Origin: a phage
Sequence record: PZ496581.1
Length of the DNA: 64,000 bases
Strand: one strand, 5' to 3'
The position numbers and the translations under genes are program-made. The notes under the pieces were generated by a model. It was not told where the DNA came from and ran no database searches. It saw only the letters and a list, made by a program, of their open reading frames with translations. Below are positions 33,296 to 41,781 of this stretch, in pieces. How positions within the stretch are numbered: the first letter of the stretch is position 1; every line of letters starts with the position of its first letter.

Positions 33296-33467
33296 TTAGT
33301 TTCTCTTTTAGGTTGGGCCATTCCGTGGCACATGTTAGGTCCTTCGACTCGCTATGTAAACCCATTACCGCATTGCGCTCGACCTTATTACAGGTTGGAA
33401 AAGGTACATCACTCAGAGGACTCGACGTTCATAAGGAGAGGTTGCGTTTCCCTTTATTAGGCAAGAA

Positions 33468-33797
33468 TTATACTCTAGGCTTTTGAGCTTGTTTGGTATT
33501 GGATTCCCATGCGGCTTTGGTAATTTTGTTAGCGGCATAACCAAAGGCATTAGATAGAACACCTTTAGAGTTGAATACATCCAATCCAATAAGTACACCG
33601 GCTGTGTTAAATTTAGGAGCAAAGTACGCATTAGTTTTAGAAAGAGCTTTTTTCAATTCAGGGTCTTGAACCAAGCCATCAAAAACGCCTTTACTATTTA
33701 CTTTATATGTTACTTTGGGATTTTTACCTTCTTCGATAGCAGCTTTCTGTTCCGCAGATAATGTAACTTCAGTGATAAACTCCTGATATGTTTTCAA
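33468..33797 (-). CDS. internal-protein-like, capsid-targeting N-terminus
   Basis: MKTYQEFITE N-terminus resembles the T4 IP capsid-targeting sequence. Confidence 0.6.
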   Translation of the reverse strand: MKTYQEFITEVTLSAEQKAAIEEGKNPKVTYKVNSKGVFDGLVQDPELKKALSKTNAYFAPKFNTAGVLIGLDVFNSKGVLSNAFGYAANKITKAAWESNTKQAQKPRV

Positions 33798-33822
33798 TTT
33801 GTTCCTATTGTTTTAATTTATG

Positions 33823-34137
33823 TTATTCTTTAGGGAAGTTTTTAGAGTATGCATCATAAAGTTTATTACCAATACGACGGAAGACTTTAGCTGCAAAACG
33901 GTTTTCAGGGTTTTTAATCATGATTTGCATCATGTAAGTTCCTGCATCCGAAAGAGCTTCTTCATAATACCCATTAATTTCTTTAAGAGTCCTACGTTTA
34001 CCACCAGGACCATCAACAGTAATTTTCCATTTACCTGTAGAAGTGCGGCTCGGTGGCTCAACTTGTTCAATCCAAATATAACCACCTTCAACGCGTTGGT
34101 TGGCGGATTCTGCAATAAATTCTTTATACGTTTTCAT
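33823..34137 (-). CDS. internal-protein-like, capsid-targeting N-terminus
   Basis: MKTYKEFIAE N-terminus; GTTTAC-N18-TATAAT promoter upstream. Confidence 0.6.
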   Translation of the reverse strand: MKTYKEFIAESANQRVEGGYIWIEQVEPPSRTSTGKWKITVDGPGGKRRTLKEINGYYEEALSDAGTYMMQIMIKNPENRFAAKVFRRIGNKLYDAYSKNFPKE

Positions 34138-34200
34138 TTTTGTTTCCTTGTTTGTTTTGATAGAGTAATTATACCATATTAATACTTAAGCGTAAACCGT

Positions 34201-34461
34201 TTAAGCTTTACCGCCAGAAATAATTCCGAAGTTGTTAAAATCATATCCAATATCGTCAACATCTACTTTAGGACTTGCTACAACATAAGCAATTTCACTA
34301 CGTTTTGCATAGGTGTTGATTTCTTTACCATTGCCACCTAAGAAAGAATACCCATTACGTTTTAATGAGCCAAAGTCTTCCGCATCACCAATGAAAGCTT
34401 TAACTTTAAATTTAGGGTCTTTGGTATCTGCTTCAACGATAAATTCTTGATACATTTTCAT
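34201..34461 (-). CDS. internal-protein-like, capsid-targeting N-terminus
   Basis: MKMYQEFIVE N-terminus. Confidence 0.55.
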   Translation of the reverse strand: MKMYQEFIVEADTKDPKFKVKAFIGDAEDFGSLKRNGYSFLGGNGKEINTYAKRSEIAYVVASPKVDVDDIGYDFNNFGIISGGKA

Positions 34462-34467
34462 TTTTCC

Positions 34468-34881
34468 TTAGTAAATTGATTTACCATAGTATTTGTACCA
34501 AGTCGGACGTTGAGCAATTTTTTCATCTAAGCGTGCTTGACTTATCGCAATGGACGCTTCGGGCGGGACATAATTATTACGAAATTCGGCAGGGATGTCG
34601 GAAATATCCTGGACTGTCGTGTCCTTGATTTTGAAACCACGTTTCAAACATTCAGCGATTAGCTCGATTTGACGTAAACGTAAAAATTCGAGTTTGTCGT
34701 AAAAGAATGTTACGTGACCTGTGCCTAAGATAAATGTTGGAGAGATTTTAAAATCCTTTACACGTTTACCGTTTTGAACATGTTTACGGACTGCACCAAA
34801 TACGCGTGGTAATTCACGATACTCAGCCATAAGATGTTGGTCGGTCAGTTCAGAAACAAGTGTTAAATTGATACGGGTCAT
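34468..34881 (-). CDS. denV: endonuclease V (pyrimidine-dimer DNA glycosylase)
   Basis: [12 protein letters not shown]...[18 protein letters not shown]... matches T4 DenV. Confidence 0.94.
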
Positions 34882-34893
34882 AATTTCCTCCAA

Positions 34894-34939
34894 GTAGTTG
34901 ATGAATGTATAGTATCAAAGTCCTTGGAGGAAGTAAACA
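34894..34939 (-). promoter_or_regulatory. denV promoter with SD-sequestering inverted repeat
   Basis: GTTTAC-N18-TACTAT; arm TTCCTCCAAG complementary to CTTGGAGGAA at the denV SD. Confidence 0.4.
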
Positions 34940-35221
34940 CTATTTTTCTGAAGCGCCTGAAATATATTTTTCAAGACGTTGTTTCATCAGCGAGCCGTTC
35001 TTAGCGATTTCTTCCGGTTTATCGCACATACGTAACAAGGCTTCAAGCTTAGCGATATCGCTGGTACGTTCAAATTTGCGAGTATCTATCTTACTAGCAA
35101 GTTCAGAAATACGTGCTAGTAGACTTTCGGCTTCAACCAAAGCTGCACCTAGCTTAGTTGCAAATGTGTCAGTAGCTTCGTTAAGAATAGATTCTGATAA
35201 AAATTCACTATATGTTTTCAT
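34940..35221 (-). CDS. internal-protein-like, capsid-targeting N-terminus
   Basis: [10 protein letters not shown] at internal Met; ATGA overlap with the stop of e. Confidence 0.6.
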
Positions 35222-35706
35222 ATATACGCTTTCCAAGTTCCTGTTTTAAATGTTGAGATTACGCGTTTCGCGCGATTAGGTGTCTGACGATACCATTTAG
35301 ATTGGGCTAGATTTACTGCCGCTTCATCCCAACGTTTCTGTTGAAGCATACGAAGAGAATTAGTAAAACCAGCGACGCCTGCTACACCCATTTGGAAGAC
35401 CATATTGACCAATGCACATCGACGAACCGCATCTAAAGAATCATATACCGGTTTAAGTTTAGCATTACCCAAGATTCCGCGAACGGCTTTATCGACGTCT
35501 TCATTAAATAGCTTTTCAGCCTCATCAAGGGTAATTGTACCGTTGCATTTACGTCCGATCATTCTGTCAAGTTCAGCTTTAGCTACGGCTAAAGACGGGT
35601 TCTTTGTTACTAAATGGCCTATGCCAATCGTCCAAAAGCCTTCAGTGTCTTTGTATAAAGTCAGTCTAAGACCTTCGTCATTACGAAGCATTTCAAATAT
35701 ATTCAT
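35218..35706 (-). CDS. e: endolysin (T4 lysozyme)
   Basis: [31 protein letters not shown]... with catalytic Glu/Asp; matches T4 e. Confidence 0.96.
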
Positions 35707-35740
35707 AATACCTCCCACGTTTATAGGAGGTATTTATTAC

Positions 35741-36199
35741 TTATAGGAGGGTAGTGAGCACCTTATATAATGATTTGCCCATTACATATTCCCATTGAGA
35801 AGGTTTAATTAAAGCGAATGCATCAAATTCAGGAATCTGTCGTCCGTCTGGGAATGTATGATAGGAATTACAAACACTGTTTCTGAATTGCTCGTGCTCT
35901 ACAGGGATGGTATATAGGAACAGATGAATATTCTTATTGTCTGAGTAATGATGTTCACCTAGGTCTTTCAGGAAGGCAGGGTCATATTGTGTAAACCCAG
36001 TTTCTTCTTCGCATTCACGAATAGCGGCTTCAATAGGAGATTCACCCGGCTCGACACGTCCTTTAGGAATATCCCACCGATGAGCTAAAGAACCTTTAGG
36101 ACGAGAACCAGTTACACGCCCCATGAATAATTCTTTATCTTCGGTAAGGAAAATAATACCGGCTGATAGTTCTTTCACTTTATTTTTCTTACTCATCAT
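35741..36199 (-). CDS. nudE: Nudix hydrolase
   Basis: 152 aa with Nudix box GRVEPGESPIEAAIRECEEETG. Confidence 0.9.
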   Translation of the reverse strand: MMSKKNKVKELSAGIIFLTEDKELFMGRVTGSRPKGSLAHRWDIPKGRVEPGESPIEAAIRECEEETGFTQYDPAFLKDLGEHHYSDNKNIHLFLYTIPVEHEQFRNSVCNSYHTFPDGRQIPEFDAFALIKPSQWEYVMGKSLYKVLTTLL

Positions 36200-36440: not shown

Positions 36441-36913
36441 TCGGTAATAAAACGTTCAACTTCATTATTCTTGGCTTTTATCTTGTCTTTATGTTCTTGT
36501 AAACTACTTTTAATAAGATTAATAATGATGGCGACAGTGCCGCCGCCAATGATGCCACCAATAATACTTACGATAGTAGATGCTAATAAGATAGCAATAA
36601 TATCAACAAAACCGAAAGAACTCACCTTAGTACTAAAAAACCATACCGATGGTACAAATATAATCCATCCTGCTATCCATTGGCACTTATTGAAAAACTT
36701 TTCAAGATCAGCTTGAGTTGTTCGTATTACTTCATCGATAGGTTGATAACCGTTAATGTATCTGTTCACGATAATACCTGCTGGCTGGTCGATTTTAAAT
36801 TCTTGGCAAATACGTTTAACTAAGTAGGATGGACATCCTGTCCAATCTACTGAATAGTATGAAATACCTTTATTGCCGTCGTCTATATTAGACCAATATG
36901 TTTTGTTAATCAT
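36422..36913 (-). CDS. hypothetical membrane protein
   Basis: 163 aa with Gly-rich TM helices (IIGGIIGGGTVAII). Confidence 0.55.
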   Translation of the reverse strand: MINKTYWSNIDDGNKGISYYSVDWTGCPSYLVKRICQEFKIDQPAGIIVNRYINGYQPIDEVIRTTQADLEKFFNKCQWIAGWIIFVPSVWFFSTKVSSFGFVDIIAILLASTIVSIIGGIIGGGTVAIIINLIKSSLQEHKDKIKAKNNEVERFITECRNLR

Positions 36914-37482
36914 TACCAGCCTTCCATAGGGAATTCCAGATAAACTTGAGCGTTGACACGAATTTCATTGGTAATCTTTTTAACTCGGTCTGTATTACGA
37001 GATACACGTCCGAACCAACGCCATCCATTACTAATTGCACGAGAACCAGTGTGCCATGTTTGCCAATCAAACTGAAGAAGAGTACGGTCCGGAGCTTCCC
37101 ATTTCTCTAGTTCACCTTTTTCAATTTTTTCGAGGACTTCTTTGTGCCACTGACGATAGATAAGTTCGCCATCAGAAGTTTTAACATCTACAACCCAATC
37201 GCCATCTTTCTCTTCAACCTGTGGTTTATCCCAAGAAATACTAATATATGATTCACTGTCAATAGAAGTCGCCGGGTTTTTCTTTACTGTAAGACCTTCA
37301 CTTTCCAGCCATTCAATAGTATTTGCGCATAACTCAGAAGAACACCTCATCGGAAACCGGCAAGATTTTTCACCTTTAGCTGCGGTGTTATACATCTTTT
37401 CTAAAATACGCTTTTGCACGTTTTTAAAAATAGTTTCAGCCGATTCTTCAGATTTTTTATTCAGTTCAGTATAAAGACTCAT
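36913..37482 (-). CDS. hypothetical protein
   Basis: 189-aa ORF; GTTTAC-N17-TACTAT promoter upstream. Confidence 0.55.
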   Translation of the reverse strand: MSLYTELNKKSEESAETIFKNVQKRILEKMYNTAAKGEKSCRFPMRCSSELCANTIEWLESEGLTVKKNPATSIDSESYISISWDKPQVEEKDGDWVVDVKTSDGELIYRQWHKEVLEKIEKGELEKWEAPDRTLLQFDWQTWHTGSRAISNGWRWFGRVSRNTDRVKKITNEIRVNAQVYLEFPMEGW

Positions 37483-37591: not shown

Positions 37592-38218
37592 TTACTTACG
37601 AGTTTTTGCATACTGAGCAGCGTCAGCAGCCAAACGACCTGCTTGTCGAAGTTTTTCTTTAATCTCATCATGAAGTGGTTGAGTATACTTCAAACCTTCG
37701 ATAGTCAAATAAAGACGATAAAGGTCTGGGGTATCAAGGTTGTTGATATGTTGGCCATTACGAAGAATATTGAATTCACGAACGAGTGAAGATGTATCAG
37801 ATTCAATATCACGAACAAGCGAAGATAGTTGTTTATATTTTTTTTCCAGGCTAGAAGTATCAAACTTAAGAGCAGGAGCTTTAGGAGTTGCTTTTACTTC
37901 CGGCTTAGGCTCAGGTTTTGCTATTGCTTTAGGGGACGCAGGTTTAGGAATGGTAGGAGCAGGTTTTACTTTAGGCGAACCCGATTTAGCAGAAACACCA
38001 CCACTAACAATATCTTTGAATGCTTTAGAAGCTCTGTAATATTCTTTTTGGCTGGAAGTGTCGATACCGTACATGGCTTGAACGTTTTTGAAAAACTCTG
38101 TACTAGTTTTTGTACCAGAAATAGCATCGTAAGCAGCTTGCCATTTCTCTTTTGTCATACGTACACCGGCTTCGGTGATTACTTCCGTTTCGGCTAAAAA
38201 TTCATTAAAAGTATACAT
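37592..38218 (-). CDS. internal-protein-like, capsid-targeting N-terminus and Pro/Lys-rich linker
   Basis: 208 aa; MYTFNEFLAE N-terminus; PKVKPAPTIPKPASPKAIAKPEPKPEVKATPKAP low-complexity tract; TATAAATA late motif upstream. Confidence 0.6.
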   Translation of the reverse strand: MYTFNEFLAETEVITEAGVRMTKEKWQAAYDAISGTKTSTEFFKNVQAMYGIDTSSQKEYYRASKAFKDIVSGGVSAKSGSPKVKPAPTIPKPASPKAIAKPEPKPEVKATPKAPALKFDTSSLEKKYKQLSSLVRDIESDTSSLVREFNILRNGQHINNLDTPDLYRLYLTIEGLKYTQPLHDEIKEKLRQAGRLAADAAQYAKTRK

Positions 38219-38262
38219 TGATGGTCCTTAGAAAGTAGGTTTATTGTTTACTATATTTATAC

Positions 38263-38293
38263 AAAAAAGCCCCAACCTTTCGGAAGGGGCTAT
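38263..38293 (-). terminator. intrinsic terminator (duplicate of 27760-27790)
   Basis: same GCCCC...GAAA...GGGGC hairpin plus U tract on minus RNA. Confidence 0.6.
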
Positions 38294-38939: not shown

Positions 38940-39018
38940 ATTTTCCTCACTTGAAGTTGGTGCCTCTAGAAAGATTTGAACTCTCACCATTAACCTTAGA
39001 ATGATTATATGCTATCCA

Positions 39019-39684
39019 TTACACTATAGAGGCAATTAAATTATTTACAATATCTTCTTTATAAACTTCAGCATAATGAAGTTCATATATTTCCCATCCT
39101 AATGATTTTATAATATCATGGCGTTCTTTATAATAAGGGGCCAAAATCTTTTTCTTAGGATTGGAGTAATGTTGATTTCCATTAACTTCAATAATAATCT
39201 TTTTATCTATTAAAGCGATATCCGTGCAATACGCTCGGTTTTTAACCGGTTGGTATTCTTCAATAAATGAAATTCCGTTTTCTATTAATTTAGATTTCAA
39301 AAATTCACAAGGCACAGATTTAAATTTTGTATTTTTCTTCCAAGGATGTTTATCGGGGTTTTCATTCAACCATTTTTTCCGAGCATTAGATATTTTTATT
39401 CTAGATTCCTCAGAGTGTTCTCTACCTAATGAAGCGGCTGACAATTTTTGTCTAGTCTCTTCCGAAATTACTACAGGAACACCAGTCTTTTTAGATACAA
39501 CATACTGGTTTAAATTACCTGAAGCTATACGTGCTTTATTCATTGCTGCAATGGCTGATTTAGAACTTTCTTTATACAATTCCAATTTAGGGTTGGATTT
39601 ACACCATCTAGTGTGGTTAGCCATCCATCCTTTAGGTTTATTAGAAATATCAAATTCCATATTACAATGTTTACAAATGCTCAT
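39019..39684 (-). CDS. homing-endonuclease-like protein (Zn finger + NUMOD3-like repeats + Vsr/DUF559-like nuclease)
   Basis: N-terminal CKHC...HTRWC; ISEETRQKLS / SEESRIKIS repeats; C-terminal DIALIDKKIIIEVNGNQH...GWEIYELHY. Confidence 0.6.
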   Translation of the reverse strand: MSICKHCNMEFDISNKPKGWMANHTRWCKSNPKLELYKESSKSAIAAMNKARIASGNLNQYVVSKKTGVPVVISEETRQKLSAASLGREHSEESRIKISNARKKWLNENPDKHPWKKNTKFKSVPCEFLKSKLIENGISFIEEYQPVKNRAYCTDIALIDKKIIIEVNGNQHYSNPKKKILAPYYKERHDIIKSLGWEIYELHYAEVYKEDIVNNLIASIV

Positions 39685-39757
39685 TACCAATTATCTCCTA
39701 TAAATATAGGAGTATTTATTATTTGGATAGAGCACTTAATTTACTTCGTTTAAATTA

Positions 39758-39829
39758 CTGGCGCACTTGGACTCGAACCAAGATAAAGGAGTTAACAGCT
39801 CCCCGTAATAACCTTTATACGATGCACCA
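39758..39829 (-). tRNA. tRNA-Asn (anticodon GUU), CCA not encoded
   Basis: manual cloverleaf: 7-bp acceptor, GGGAG/CTCCT anticodon stem, loop CUGUUAA, T-arm CTTGG-TTCGAGT-CCAAG. Confidence 0.6.
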
Positions 39830-39835
39830 TTTGTT

Positions 39836-39910
39836 TGGTGACCCTGGCTGGTTTCGATCCAGCTACCTATCAGTTATGAGCTGACAGCTCTCCCATTGAG
39901 CTACAGGGCC
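39836..39910 (-). tRNA. tRNA with CAU anticodon (Met, or Ile if lysidine-modified), CCA encoded
   Basis: manual cloverleaf: GGCCCTG/CAGGGTC acceptor, D-stem GCTC/GAGC, anticodon loop CUCAUAA, 3' ACCA. Confidence 0.65.
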
Positions 39911-41416: not shown

Positions 41417-41704
41417 TTACAGAAGAGTTTTTGCAATAATTTTAAGCTGAGCTACAGAAATATGCTTAGCTTTAAACAGTGCAGTCTCTTCAGCCGGAGA
41501 GATAACAATAGTAGCGCCATCTTTCTTGGCAGACCATCCATCCCCTAAGTAAACAGTACCTTTTACTTCTTCGCCGTCAACCAGACTAATCATTGGTTTA
41601 CCCTCACGTCCTTTATTTGCTTTAATAACTTCGGAAGTAAGGGTTGCTTCGGTCAGAGTAGAAACGTTAGCAACAGGTGATATAAATTCTTGATAGGTTT
41701 TCAT
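41417..41704 (-). CDS. internal-protein-like (ipI position)
   Basis: MKTYQEFISP N-terminus; promoter with AGGATGAT/ATCATCCT inverted repeat upstream. Confidence 0.6.
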   Translation of the reverse strand: MKTYQEFISPVANVSTLTEATLTSEVIKANKGREGKPMISLVDGEEVKGTVYLGDGWSAKKDGATIVISPAEETALFKAKHISVAQLKIIAKTLL

Positions 41705-41781
41705 TTTATTTCCTTGAGGTTGTTTATTTGATAGGATGATAGTAACACACCATCATCCTTATGTAAACTGGTTTGTGAAAA

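Follow-up and report, generated by a model that had tools for sequence, protein, structure and literature searches.

The four small genes clustered around denV in the window analyzed here, the whole 64,000-nucleotide stretch of DNA of an RB69-like Mosigvirus, probably represent (at a probability of about 0.7) the form that the hypervariable internal-protein (IP) locus flanking denV in T-even phages takes in Mosigvirus (RB69-type) phages. The array corresponds to the ipII/ipIII locus of T4, and the reading of its members as T4-type internal-protein genes carrying a capsid-targeting sequence (CTS) is supported at the level of sequence comparison: the key residues of the CTS, the shared locus, the membership of two genes in the Ip10 and IpV families and the public annotations all agree with what the initial annotation had proposed. 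The cluster is real but ordinary for RB69-type phages, and the kind of system to which it belongs is already known. We infer that the four array proteins are very probably packaged in the head, the odds being slightly in favor of anti-restriction activity in at least one of them.

Table 1. Positions of the array genes, their neighbors and the two outlying CTS-bearing genes in the window (slashes mark putative cleavage sites).
Feature	Position	Strand	Product	Remarks
Ip-like gene A, RB69ORF123c orthologue	33468-33797	-	109 aa	N-terminus MKTYQEFITE
Ip-like gene B, Ip10 family	33823-34137	-	104 aa	N-terminus MKTYKEFIAE
T4-type early promoter before gene B	34168-34197	-		GTTTAC, 17-nt spacer, TG-extended TATAAT
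Ip-like gene C, RB69ORF125c orthologue	34201-34461	-	86 aa	N-terminus MKMYQEFIVE
denV (endonuclease V), conserved gene splitting the array	34468-34881	-		Pfam Pyr_excise 3.4e-14; phrog_1183 6.7e-62
Ip-like gene D, IpV family	34940-35221	-	93 aa	CTS decapeptide, then /SILNE/A
Lysozyme e	35218-35706	-		Pfam Phage_lysozyme 7.5e-14
CTS-bearing late gene	37592-38218	-	208 aa	N-terminus MYTFNEFLAE/TEVITE/AG
Terminator-like hairpin with T-run (38290-38263), then late promoter TATAAATA (38261-38254)	38254-38290	-
IPI orthologue, precursor of GmrSD inhibitor IPI*	41417-41704	-	95 aa	Pfam IPI_T4 1.3e-50

Layout of the array and its shared N-terminus

All six open reading frames (ORFs) that the initial annotation had named, four in the array and two farther away, are present where it placed them and every one lies on the minus strand, so that the single positions by which it listed the genes are their stop-codon ends. 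As it had claimed, the four array ORFs open with M-K-(T/M)-Y-x-E-F-(I/L)-x-E: the strict pattern K[TM]Y.EF[IL].E has four matches in the six-frame translation of the window where 0.00024 are expected, and none across 200 Markov simulations, and a looser N-terminal pattern selects the six named ORFs and no others in the 64 kb. The residues that determine targeting are present in 6/6 ORFs (Tyr or Phe at position 4, Phe at position 7), and [I/L]-x-E occupies residues 8-10 in the four array genes and in the outlying gene at 37592-38218. Mutagenesis of the CTS has assigned the control of targeting to aromatic 4 and Phe7 and the control of processing to I/L8 and Glu10 (PMC9026906), and an attached CTS packages virtually any protein (PMC7697877). 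The CTS is retained in homologues with body identities down to 36-72%.

Beyond this N-terminus the proteins are unrelated, as had also been noted from the start: body-only BLASTP yields no significant pair, and hhalign on body-only family alignments reaches a probability of at most 0.6%. PHROG 3966, which unites genes A and B, was rejected as a sign of kinship; because the two bodies are without homology by either method, its grouping is read as driven by the shared CTS. The four genes sit between e and vs.8, which is the ipIII/ipII site of T4, with lysozyme e just upstream of the array and denV, in agreement with the initial annotation, between the third and the fourth gene. Two are members of named Ip families (gene B of Ip10 and gene D of IpV; the Ip numbering follows GenBank notes and later papers), three of the four carry an "internal head protein" label in some public record, and PHROG families of that name strongly match two of the four proteins (genes C and D), the copies of which are labelled internal head proteins in RefSeq RB69. 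Pfam and NCBIfam hold nothing meaningful for the five proteins other than the IPI orthologue, and a sequence search of the PDB returned no relatives for the same five. No canonical TATAAATA late promoter was found within the array, and the sole RB69-like virion proteome found, in which five proteins were detected, lists 0/4 of the array proteins.

The array shares with T4 IPII/IPIII its locus, a 10-residue CTS (MKTYQEFIAE in T4), small products and early-type promoters, whereas the bodies of its proteins show no homology to IPII or IPIII and its arrangement is different: T4 has two ip genes at this locus, both upstream of denV, and here one gene lies upstream and three lie downstream. A set larger than that of T4 is normal in other phages of this kind. 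More than 30 IP variants have been reported, in two hypervariable loci, and the number of CTS genes around denV is five in AnYang (Dhakavirus), three in SP18, two in Kosakonia phage 305, two in T4 and one in PG7; since other genera carry one to five such genes, an array of four was no longer regarded as out of the ordinary. The number of phage records differs from one array gene to another (91, 190, 218, and 497), and the whole region is covered in just 68 of 380 matching records.

The four array genes

Gene A encodes a basic protein (pI 9.7 after residue 10) with a second [LI]xE site, IEE23/G. The product is identical to RB69 ORF123c at 107 of 109 residues and to a mar008P4 protein at 109 of 109, and its homologue in the Dhakavirus AnYang, at 36% identity, also opens with MKTYQEFITE. 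The start codon of gene A is TTG and is private to this phage (ATG in its relatives); it is preceded by an AGGA ribosome-binding site, and no phage record is identical over the 75 nt around it. Gene A matches families of unknown function only and is annotated "hypothetical" in every record except that of ESCO10, where the label "RNA polymerase ADP-ribosylase" given to its homologue was rejected because the annotation of the ESCO10 record is plainly shifted out of register throughout the locus.

Gene B, also basic (pI 9.6), is 72% identical along its entire length to a protein of Shigella phage SP18 described as "Ip10, similar to Ip10 of bacteriophage Pol," and has homologues in Karamvirus and Kanagawavirus that flank denV on either side; the RB69 copy has a C-terminal frameshift. 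Its early promoter, with 10 of 12 matches, is the best promoter-like site in the region, and T4 ipII and ipIII are preceded by the same promoter type. The Pfam and NCBIfam searches gave for gene B a sub-threshold CsgH match only. For both genes A and B, a word-indexed homologue search returned two to three clusters only, too few to bring good models within reach; the AF2 model of gene B, built from a 3-sequence alignment, had a pLDDT of 46.8, was unusable and was discarded.

Genes C and D are near-neutral in charge. Gene C starts 7 nt past the denV stop codon, its body matches only families annotated as internal head protein (phrog_2667, 2.9e-21), and its homologue in SP18 has the N-terminus MKTYQEFITE. 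It is the most variable member of the array, its best database copy being 97.7% identical and none reaching 99%. Gene D, whose start codon shares an ATGA overlap with the lysozyme e stop codon, matches the "internal head protein" family phrog_3499 (2.1e-46) and has 47.6% identity over about 84 residues with the IpV protein of Yersinia phage PST; IpV is also a protein of T2-type phages. In PST, IpV is found at the ipI locus with an IPI-type propeptide (MKTFKEF...ITE), whereas gene D lies next to e and has an ipII/III-type CTS. Gene D is probably carried on transcripts of the upstream late gene e; the positions that align with the late promoters of T4 e are degenerate in the window (AATAAATA, TATAAACG). 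In the RB69 copy of gene D, a deletion and a compensating insertion destroy the CTS.

The array bodies have no recognizable fold, no solved relative and no match to a characterized Ip, in a test of kinship by sequence or fold that has little power because the characterized inhibitors are themselves mutually unrelated.

CTS-bearing genes outside the array

The two further copies of the signal that had been claimed both exist as ORFs, but they fit the motif more loosely (MYTFNEFLAE in one, MKTYQEFISP, without Glu10, in the other). The second of these, at 41417-41704, is the orthologue of T4 IPI: its product is 94% identical to T4 IPI, matches PDB 2JUB (IPI*) at 5.7e-42 over residues 20-95, differs from it at four residues in the mature part, and has an LTE/A site at residue 19 as in T4 IPI. 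The gene occupies the same locus as in T4, adjoining 57B (the 57B-trna.4 IP locus), and is preceded, as is T4 ipI, by an early promoter and a 12-bp stem-loop. The four array proteins have only the CTS in common with IPI.

The gene at 37592-38218, which is located outside both hypervariable IP loci, likely encodes an unrecognized conserved internal head protein. Its product is 98% identical (204/208) to MAR005P1_00015 of phage vB_Eco_mar005P1, which is annotated "confirmed structural protein by MS" for RB69-like virions, a finding on a sister CTS protein that speaks for the internal-protein reading of the array; that protein was published as "hypothetical / structural" only, and no mention was made of a CTS-like N-terminus, of cleavage sites or of a late promoter. 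Homologues in other genera begin with MKTYNEFLNE, and distant members of the family keep the motif and the second [LI]xE site at body identities below 30%. Between 32.5 and 43 kb, this strand has just two exact TATAAATA sites, and the canonical late promoter that serves the gene is one of them. Without its CTS, the protein is strongly basic (pI 9.6-9.7), and it consists of two helical domains with a Pro/Lys/Ala-rich linker between them. It is annotated hypothetical and matches families of unknown function only, and the Pfam and NCBIfam searches gave a TonB-linker-like match confined to the Pro/Lys linker. Its AF2 model has a pLDDT of 73.6, with residues 4-17 and 74-113 disordered, and Foldseek searches of this model against PDB and BFVD retrieved generic helical bundles and its own uncharacterized family only.

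Packaging, function and alternative explanations

The route by which the array proteins may act can be drawn from the T4 literature (sufficiency of the CTS, cleavage after Glu10, inhibition of GmrSD variants by Ip1, Ip2, and Ip3, and also the action of the Bas37 Ip on McrBC) together with what was observed here (the motif, locus homology, family membership, the lack of kinship among the bodies, and the context of promoters and gene coupling). The 10-residue N-terminal CTS would bind the scaffolding core, so that the protein would be built into the prohead, and the prohead protease gp21 would cut after Glu10 (I/L-x-E) and sometimes at a second I/L-x-E a few residues on. The freed body would then remain in the filled head and be injected with the DNA. 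In the cell, each body would most likely bind and block a single modification-dependent (type IV) restriction enzyme. Candidate targets are McrBC and enzymes of the GmrSD family; left uninhibited, these would cut the phage DNA with its arabinosylated cytosine. The array may grow and change as whole gene cassettes are exchanged, both from phage to phage and from one Ip locus to the other.

An anti-defense role for internal proteins is the current published view. The initial annotation had credited only one T4 IP with anti-restriction activity, which needs correction, as all three T4 Ips block type IV restriction: Ip1, Ip2, and Ip3 each have a different GmrSD enzyme as their target (PMC12373910). 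IPIII is required on ECOR17, and the host-specific plating defect of the T4 IPIII deletion is rescued by the CTS-less protein in the host. Bas37_0260, which inhibits McrBC (HIDEN-SEQ preprint), is a CTS protein at the ipI locus, i.e., at the other locus than the array; it has the same N-terminal signal and a demonstrated anti-type-IV role, its body is called non-homologous, and its likeness to the array proteins is taken from its description. GmrSD-family enzymes do cut the DNA of Mosigvirus, and RB69 IPI gives protection from one such enzyme. All four Ips characterized so far are inhibitors of type IV restriction. When ten other ip genes were set against five further active GmrSD systems, no new inhibitory pairs were obtained, so that a GmrSD target is not guaranteed for the array proteins. 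As for the proposal that the six CTS-bearing proteins form a pool of anti-defense candidates, its general idea accords with this published view and may apply to the array; its sixth member is simply the IPI orthologue.

Packaged and processed as they may be, the array proteins might serve the virion itself, through DNA charge, genome condensation or ejection, and not counter host defense. We consider this improbable, although the products of genes A and B and of the gene at 37592-38218 are strongly basic without the CTS and the ten other ip genes were inactive against the five GmrSD systems. The 37592-38218 family has been conserved in several genera and accounts for one of the five proteins of the shallow virion proteome, and this conservation and abundance fit a structural role better than a role in an arms race. 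The array genes, however, come and go between close relatives and have unrelated bodies, which is the pattern of accessory counter-defense; moreover, genes C and D are not basic, and the inhibition of type IV restriction by every characterized Ip argues for a similar role here. It is less probable still that at least one array gene is decaying or no longer packaged, either as the relic of a cassette or as an early cytoplasmic protein with an inherited N-terminus. The private change of the gene A start from ATG to TTG, a weak start, would be consistent with such decay, as would the early promoter of gene B and the lack of an exact late promoter in the array; the RB69 reference has lesions in three of the four orthologues (ITE altered to IAA in one, a frameshift at the C-terminus in another, and two frameshifts spanning the CTS in the third), which suggests that array genes are dispensable in the laboratory. 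In the window, on the other hand, all four reading frames are intact and their CTS motifs complete, dozens of independent isolates have orthologues at 97-100% identity, TTG is usable as a start codon and is preceded by its ribosome-binding site, and the products of T4 ipII and ipIII are packaged despite early-type promoters.

The shared 5' end could also be conserved as DNA, as a recombination or translation-initiation cassette, and not as a protein-targeting signal. The literature does associate the IP loci with conserved promoters and stem-loops through which cassettes are shuffled, and IpV-type bodies are joined to different propeptide types at different loci, but the 30-nt segments that code for the CTS vary synonymously (ACA/ACG, GAG/GAA, ATC/ATT), from which it follows that conservation is at the peptide level. 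In addition, the distant relatives of the 37592-38218 protein keep the peptide motif with largely diverged bodies, and in mutagenesis and fusion experiments the peptide is sufficient for packaging, all of which makes a purely DNA-level signal very unlikely.

Taken as the internal-protein locus of an RB69-type phage, the array supplies four uncharacterized candidates, which come from a group of phages whose DNA is modified differently, and the outlying gene adds one MS-confirmed conserved virion protein that nobody has so far labelled an internal protein. Matching proteins to targets would aid host-range prediction for RB69-like phages used in therapy or biocontrol; the practical value is modest, and current understanding is unchanged.

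Mosigvirus DNA contains arabosylated 5-hydroxycytosine and not glucosyl-hmC, so an array protein could counter a defense that senses arabinosylated DNA. That one or several array proteins act against a defense specific for arabinosylated DNA and that the 37592-38218 family is a new internal head protein form, taken jointly, a tentative and rather doubtful proposal. The most plausible inhibitor of such a defense could be the product of gene A, which is restricted to Mosigvirus, or that of gene C, which evolves fast, and the defense itself might be an undescribed class of type IV enzyme or a non-nuclease sensor. The 37592-38218 family, which would then be a widely conserved and abundant component of the head that T4 lacks, could have a role unlike that of the arms-race Ips.

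Genes with a capsid-targeting sequence around denV

The phage is an RB69-like member of the genus Mosigvirus, and its region 33300-35800 shares 99.0% identity with Escherichia phage NRG-P0074 and 98.1% with RB69. [quoted passage not shown] Their surroundings share with T4 the frame of conserved genes around the Ip loci: T4 carries ipIII and ipII between e and denV, and ipI beside 57B.

Features of the Ip loci, the array being listed in transcription order
Feature	Position	Strand	Description	RB69 counterpart
lysozyme gene e	35706-35218	minus	first in order	
gene D	35221-34940	minus	93-aa ORF with CTS start, after e	ORF127c
denV	34881-34468	minus	between genes D and C	
gene C	34461-34201	minus	86-aa ORF, start MKMYQEFIVE	ORF125c
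gene B	34137-33823	minus	104-aa ORF, start MKTYKEFIAE	ORF124c
gene A	33797-33468	minus	109-aa ORF, start MKTYQEFITE	ORF123c
vs.8	33295-32756	minus	last in order, after gene A	
IPI orthologue	41417-41704	minus	Pfam IPI_T4 1.3e-50; PDB 2JUB 5.7e-42, residues 20-95	

The initial annotation described four genes with capsid-targeting N-termini, unrelated bodies, denV between the third and the fourth, and six such ORFs in total, all of which was confirmed. The six-frame translation contains the strict motif K[TM]Y.EF[IL].E 4 times, where amino-acid frequencies predict 0.00024 occurrences, and the motif was absent from all 200 first-order Markov simulations. With a looser N-terminal pattern, the six named ORFs are the only matches in the 64 kb. 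The position of denV follows from the ORF order on the minus strand. The 30-nt segments coding for the CTS differ at synonymous sites, which places the conservation at the level of the peptide. No relationship between the bodies was detected by BLASTP, and profile-profile comparison of body-only alignments (hhalign) gave probabilities of at most 0.6%.

The array is a known class of genes at a known place, several of them being already annotated as internal head proteins. Genes C and D belong to PHROG “internal head protein” families and bear the same label in RefSeq RB69; gene D shares 47.6% identity with IpV of Yersinia phage PST. Gene B shares 72% identity with the Ip10 of Shigella phage SP18, whose annotation likens it to Ip10 of phage Pol. 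Gene A, which has a Dhakavirus homologue at the same place (36% identity, start also MKTYQEFITE), is “hypothetical” in every record except that of phage vB_EcoM_ESCO10 (OM386655). Product names in the latter are clearly off-register and therefore unfit for use: denV is “hypothetical,” Ip homologues are “RNA polymerase ADP-ribosylase” and vs genes are “DNA ligase” or “baseplate.” The proteins of genes A and B both match phrog_3966 (~1e-32 to 1e-34), a family that appears to be united by the shared 10-residue CTS, the bodies being without homology by BLASTP or hhalign; this grouping calls for caution in annotation transfer. The cluster of the gene B protein, with a longest contig of 489 kb, has among its members an NCBI entry listed under Escherichia coli, probably through phage contamination or a chimeric assembly because T4-like phages do not lysogenise.

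Expression signals and the RB69 reference

The expression context of the array matches that of T4. Gene B is preceded by an early promoter of the canonical T4 type (GTTTAC-N17-TATAAT), as are T4 ipII and ipIII; gene C starts 7 nt past denV; and gene D begins within an ATGA that also contains the stop codon of the late gene e, an arrangement suggestive of translational coupling. No exact late promoter was found inside the array. T4 carries a pair of exact late promoters (TATAAATA) ahead of e, whereas the aligned positions in the window (35707-35760, minus strand) are degenerate, reading TATAAGTA/AATAAATA and TATAAACG.

The start codon of gene A (33795-33797, minus strand) is TTG, in contrast to the ATG of RB69 and mar008P4, and should reduce its translation. 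No other sequenced relative shares it, and among 50,697 phage genomes even the best match to the 75 nt around this start has 1 mismatch; the codon is either a private mutation or a sequencing error. When the RB69 sequence (AY303349, 7669-9423) is compared with positions 33468-35221, three of the four RB69 Ip-like genes carry lesions: residues 8-10 of ORF123c are IAA and not ITE, ORF124c is frameshifted towards its C-terminus (90 aa vs. 104), and in ORF127c a 1-nt deletion with a compensating insertion rewrites CTS residues 5-12, giving MKTYMNFYQN. The last variant is present only in the two RB69 records and could stem from decay of a laboratory strain or from sequencing errors dating from 2003.

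Predicted packaging and anti-restriction role

The first ten residues of T4 IPIII suffice for packaging, as established by truncation and amber-suppression experiments, positions 4 and 7 controlling targeting and positions 8 and 10 controlling cleavage by the prohead protease (PMC9026906). The CTS encapsidates virtually any attached protein and is removed by the maturation protease (PMC7697877). Genes A to D all encode Tyr4, Phe7, Ile/Leu8, and Glu10, and two of the four proteins have a second [LI]xE site a little downstream. From these experiments, the conserved residues and the expression context, we infer that the array proteins would be packaged via the scaffolding core, cleaved after Glu10 and injected together with the DNA.

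The bodies gave no functional hint from fold or solved structure. Going by the published functions of relatives, they are most likely inhibitors of specific type IV restriction enzymes. The view that only one T4 IP is anti-restriction is out of date, as Ip1, Ip2, and Ip3 each inhibit one distinct GmrSD-type enzyme without cross-protection (PMC12373910). Moreover, strain ECOR17 is a host on which IPIII is needed, McrBC is inhibited by a non-homologous CTS protein from phage Bas37, and RB69 IPI gives protection from one member of the GmrSD family, enzymes of which cut the arabinosylated DNA of Mosigvirus. Ten other ip genes assayed against five additional GmrSD systems yielded no new inhibitory pairs (PMC12373910). 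The finding is real and correctly interpreted, and its anti-defence hypothesis is the view that the field already holds.

The notion of an exceptionally expanded set did not stand: Arbiol et al. put the number of known IP variants above 30 and report two IP loci of high variability, with which early-promoter and stem-loop elements are associated. Around denV in the loci compared, CTS genes number five in AnYang (a Dhakavirus, on both sides), three in SP18, two each in Kosakonia phage 305 and T4, and one in PG7, so that four is not unusual. Ip families also move between positions: the Ip10 homologue of PG7 is upstream of denV, those elsewhere are downstream of it, and IpV occupies the ipI locus in PST whereas the IpV-like gene D adjoins e. 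Residual novelty lies in the targets of Mosigvirus Ip proteins and in recognising the family of the ORF at 37592-38218 as a conserved, CTS-bearing virion protein.

Outlying copies and neighbouring rearrangements

Both further CTS copies proposed initially were found. That at 41417-41704 is IPI itself, its mature part differing from T4 IPI* (the cleaved form) at four residues. The upstream segment (41705-41781, minus strand) has a GTTTAC early-promoter -35 box and, after it, a stem-loop of 12 bp (AGGATGATGGTG...). This arrangement is also the one ahead of T4 ipI, and it corresponds to the promoter and stem-loop (“PeSL-like”) elements proposed as mediators of cassette shuffling at IP loci.

Of the two, the ORF at 37592-38218 is of greater interest. 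Its N-terminus reads MYTFNEFLAE, a departure from the canonical motif; homologues in other genera have MKTYNEFLNE. In distant members, which form 13 clusters at 50% identity in a set of 1.84 billion proteins, M-x-x-F-x-[ED]-[FI]-L-x-E and a further [LI]xE|[AS] site are kept throughout. The ORF is a self-contained late unit: its ATG is preceded at 36 nt by an exact TATAAATA promoter, which directly follows a terminator-like hairpin, and a UUCG hairpin lies past the stop codon. Its product is identical at 204 of 208 residues to MAR005P1_00015, noted in GenBank as “confirmed structural protein by MS,” and is probably abundant in virions, given that only five proteins were detected in the mar005P1 proteome, i.e., tail sheath, prohead core protein, major capsid protein, Alt, and MAR005P1_00015 (PMC6563131). 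No record labels it an internal protein. The AF2 model (pLDDT 73.6) has two helical domains, a disordered Pro/Lys/Ala linker and a disordered propeptide; fold searches returned nothing informative.

Relative to RB69 and mar005P1, ~5.4 kb (homologues of ORF133c-139c, e.3-e.6, frd.3, and ORF145c) are absent at junction 37169-37175, where the flanking alignments overlap by 7 nt. The ORF at 36913-37482 (189 aa) is an in-frame chimera of an ORF146c-like N-terminal part and an ORF132c-like C-terminal part. At the position of T4 segB, a 223-aa ORF (39019-39690) lies between tRNA-Arg and tRNA-Asn (38958-39910), its 3′ end overlapping the tRNA-Arg call (38958-39033), whereas mar005P1 has only tRNA-Arg and tRNA-Met there, without a counterpart of this ORF.
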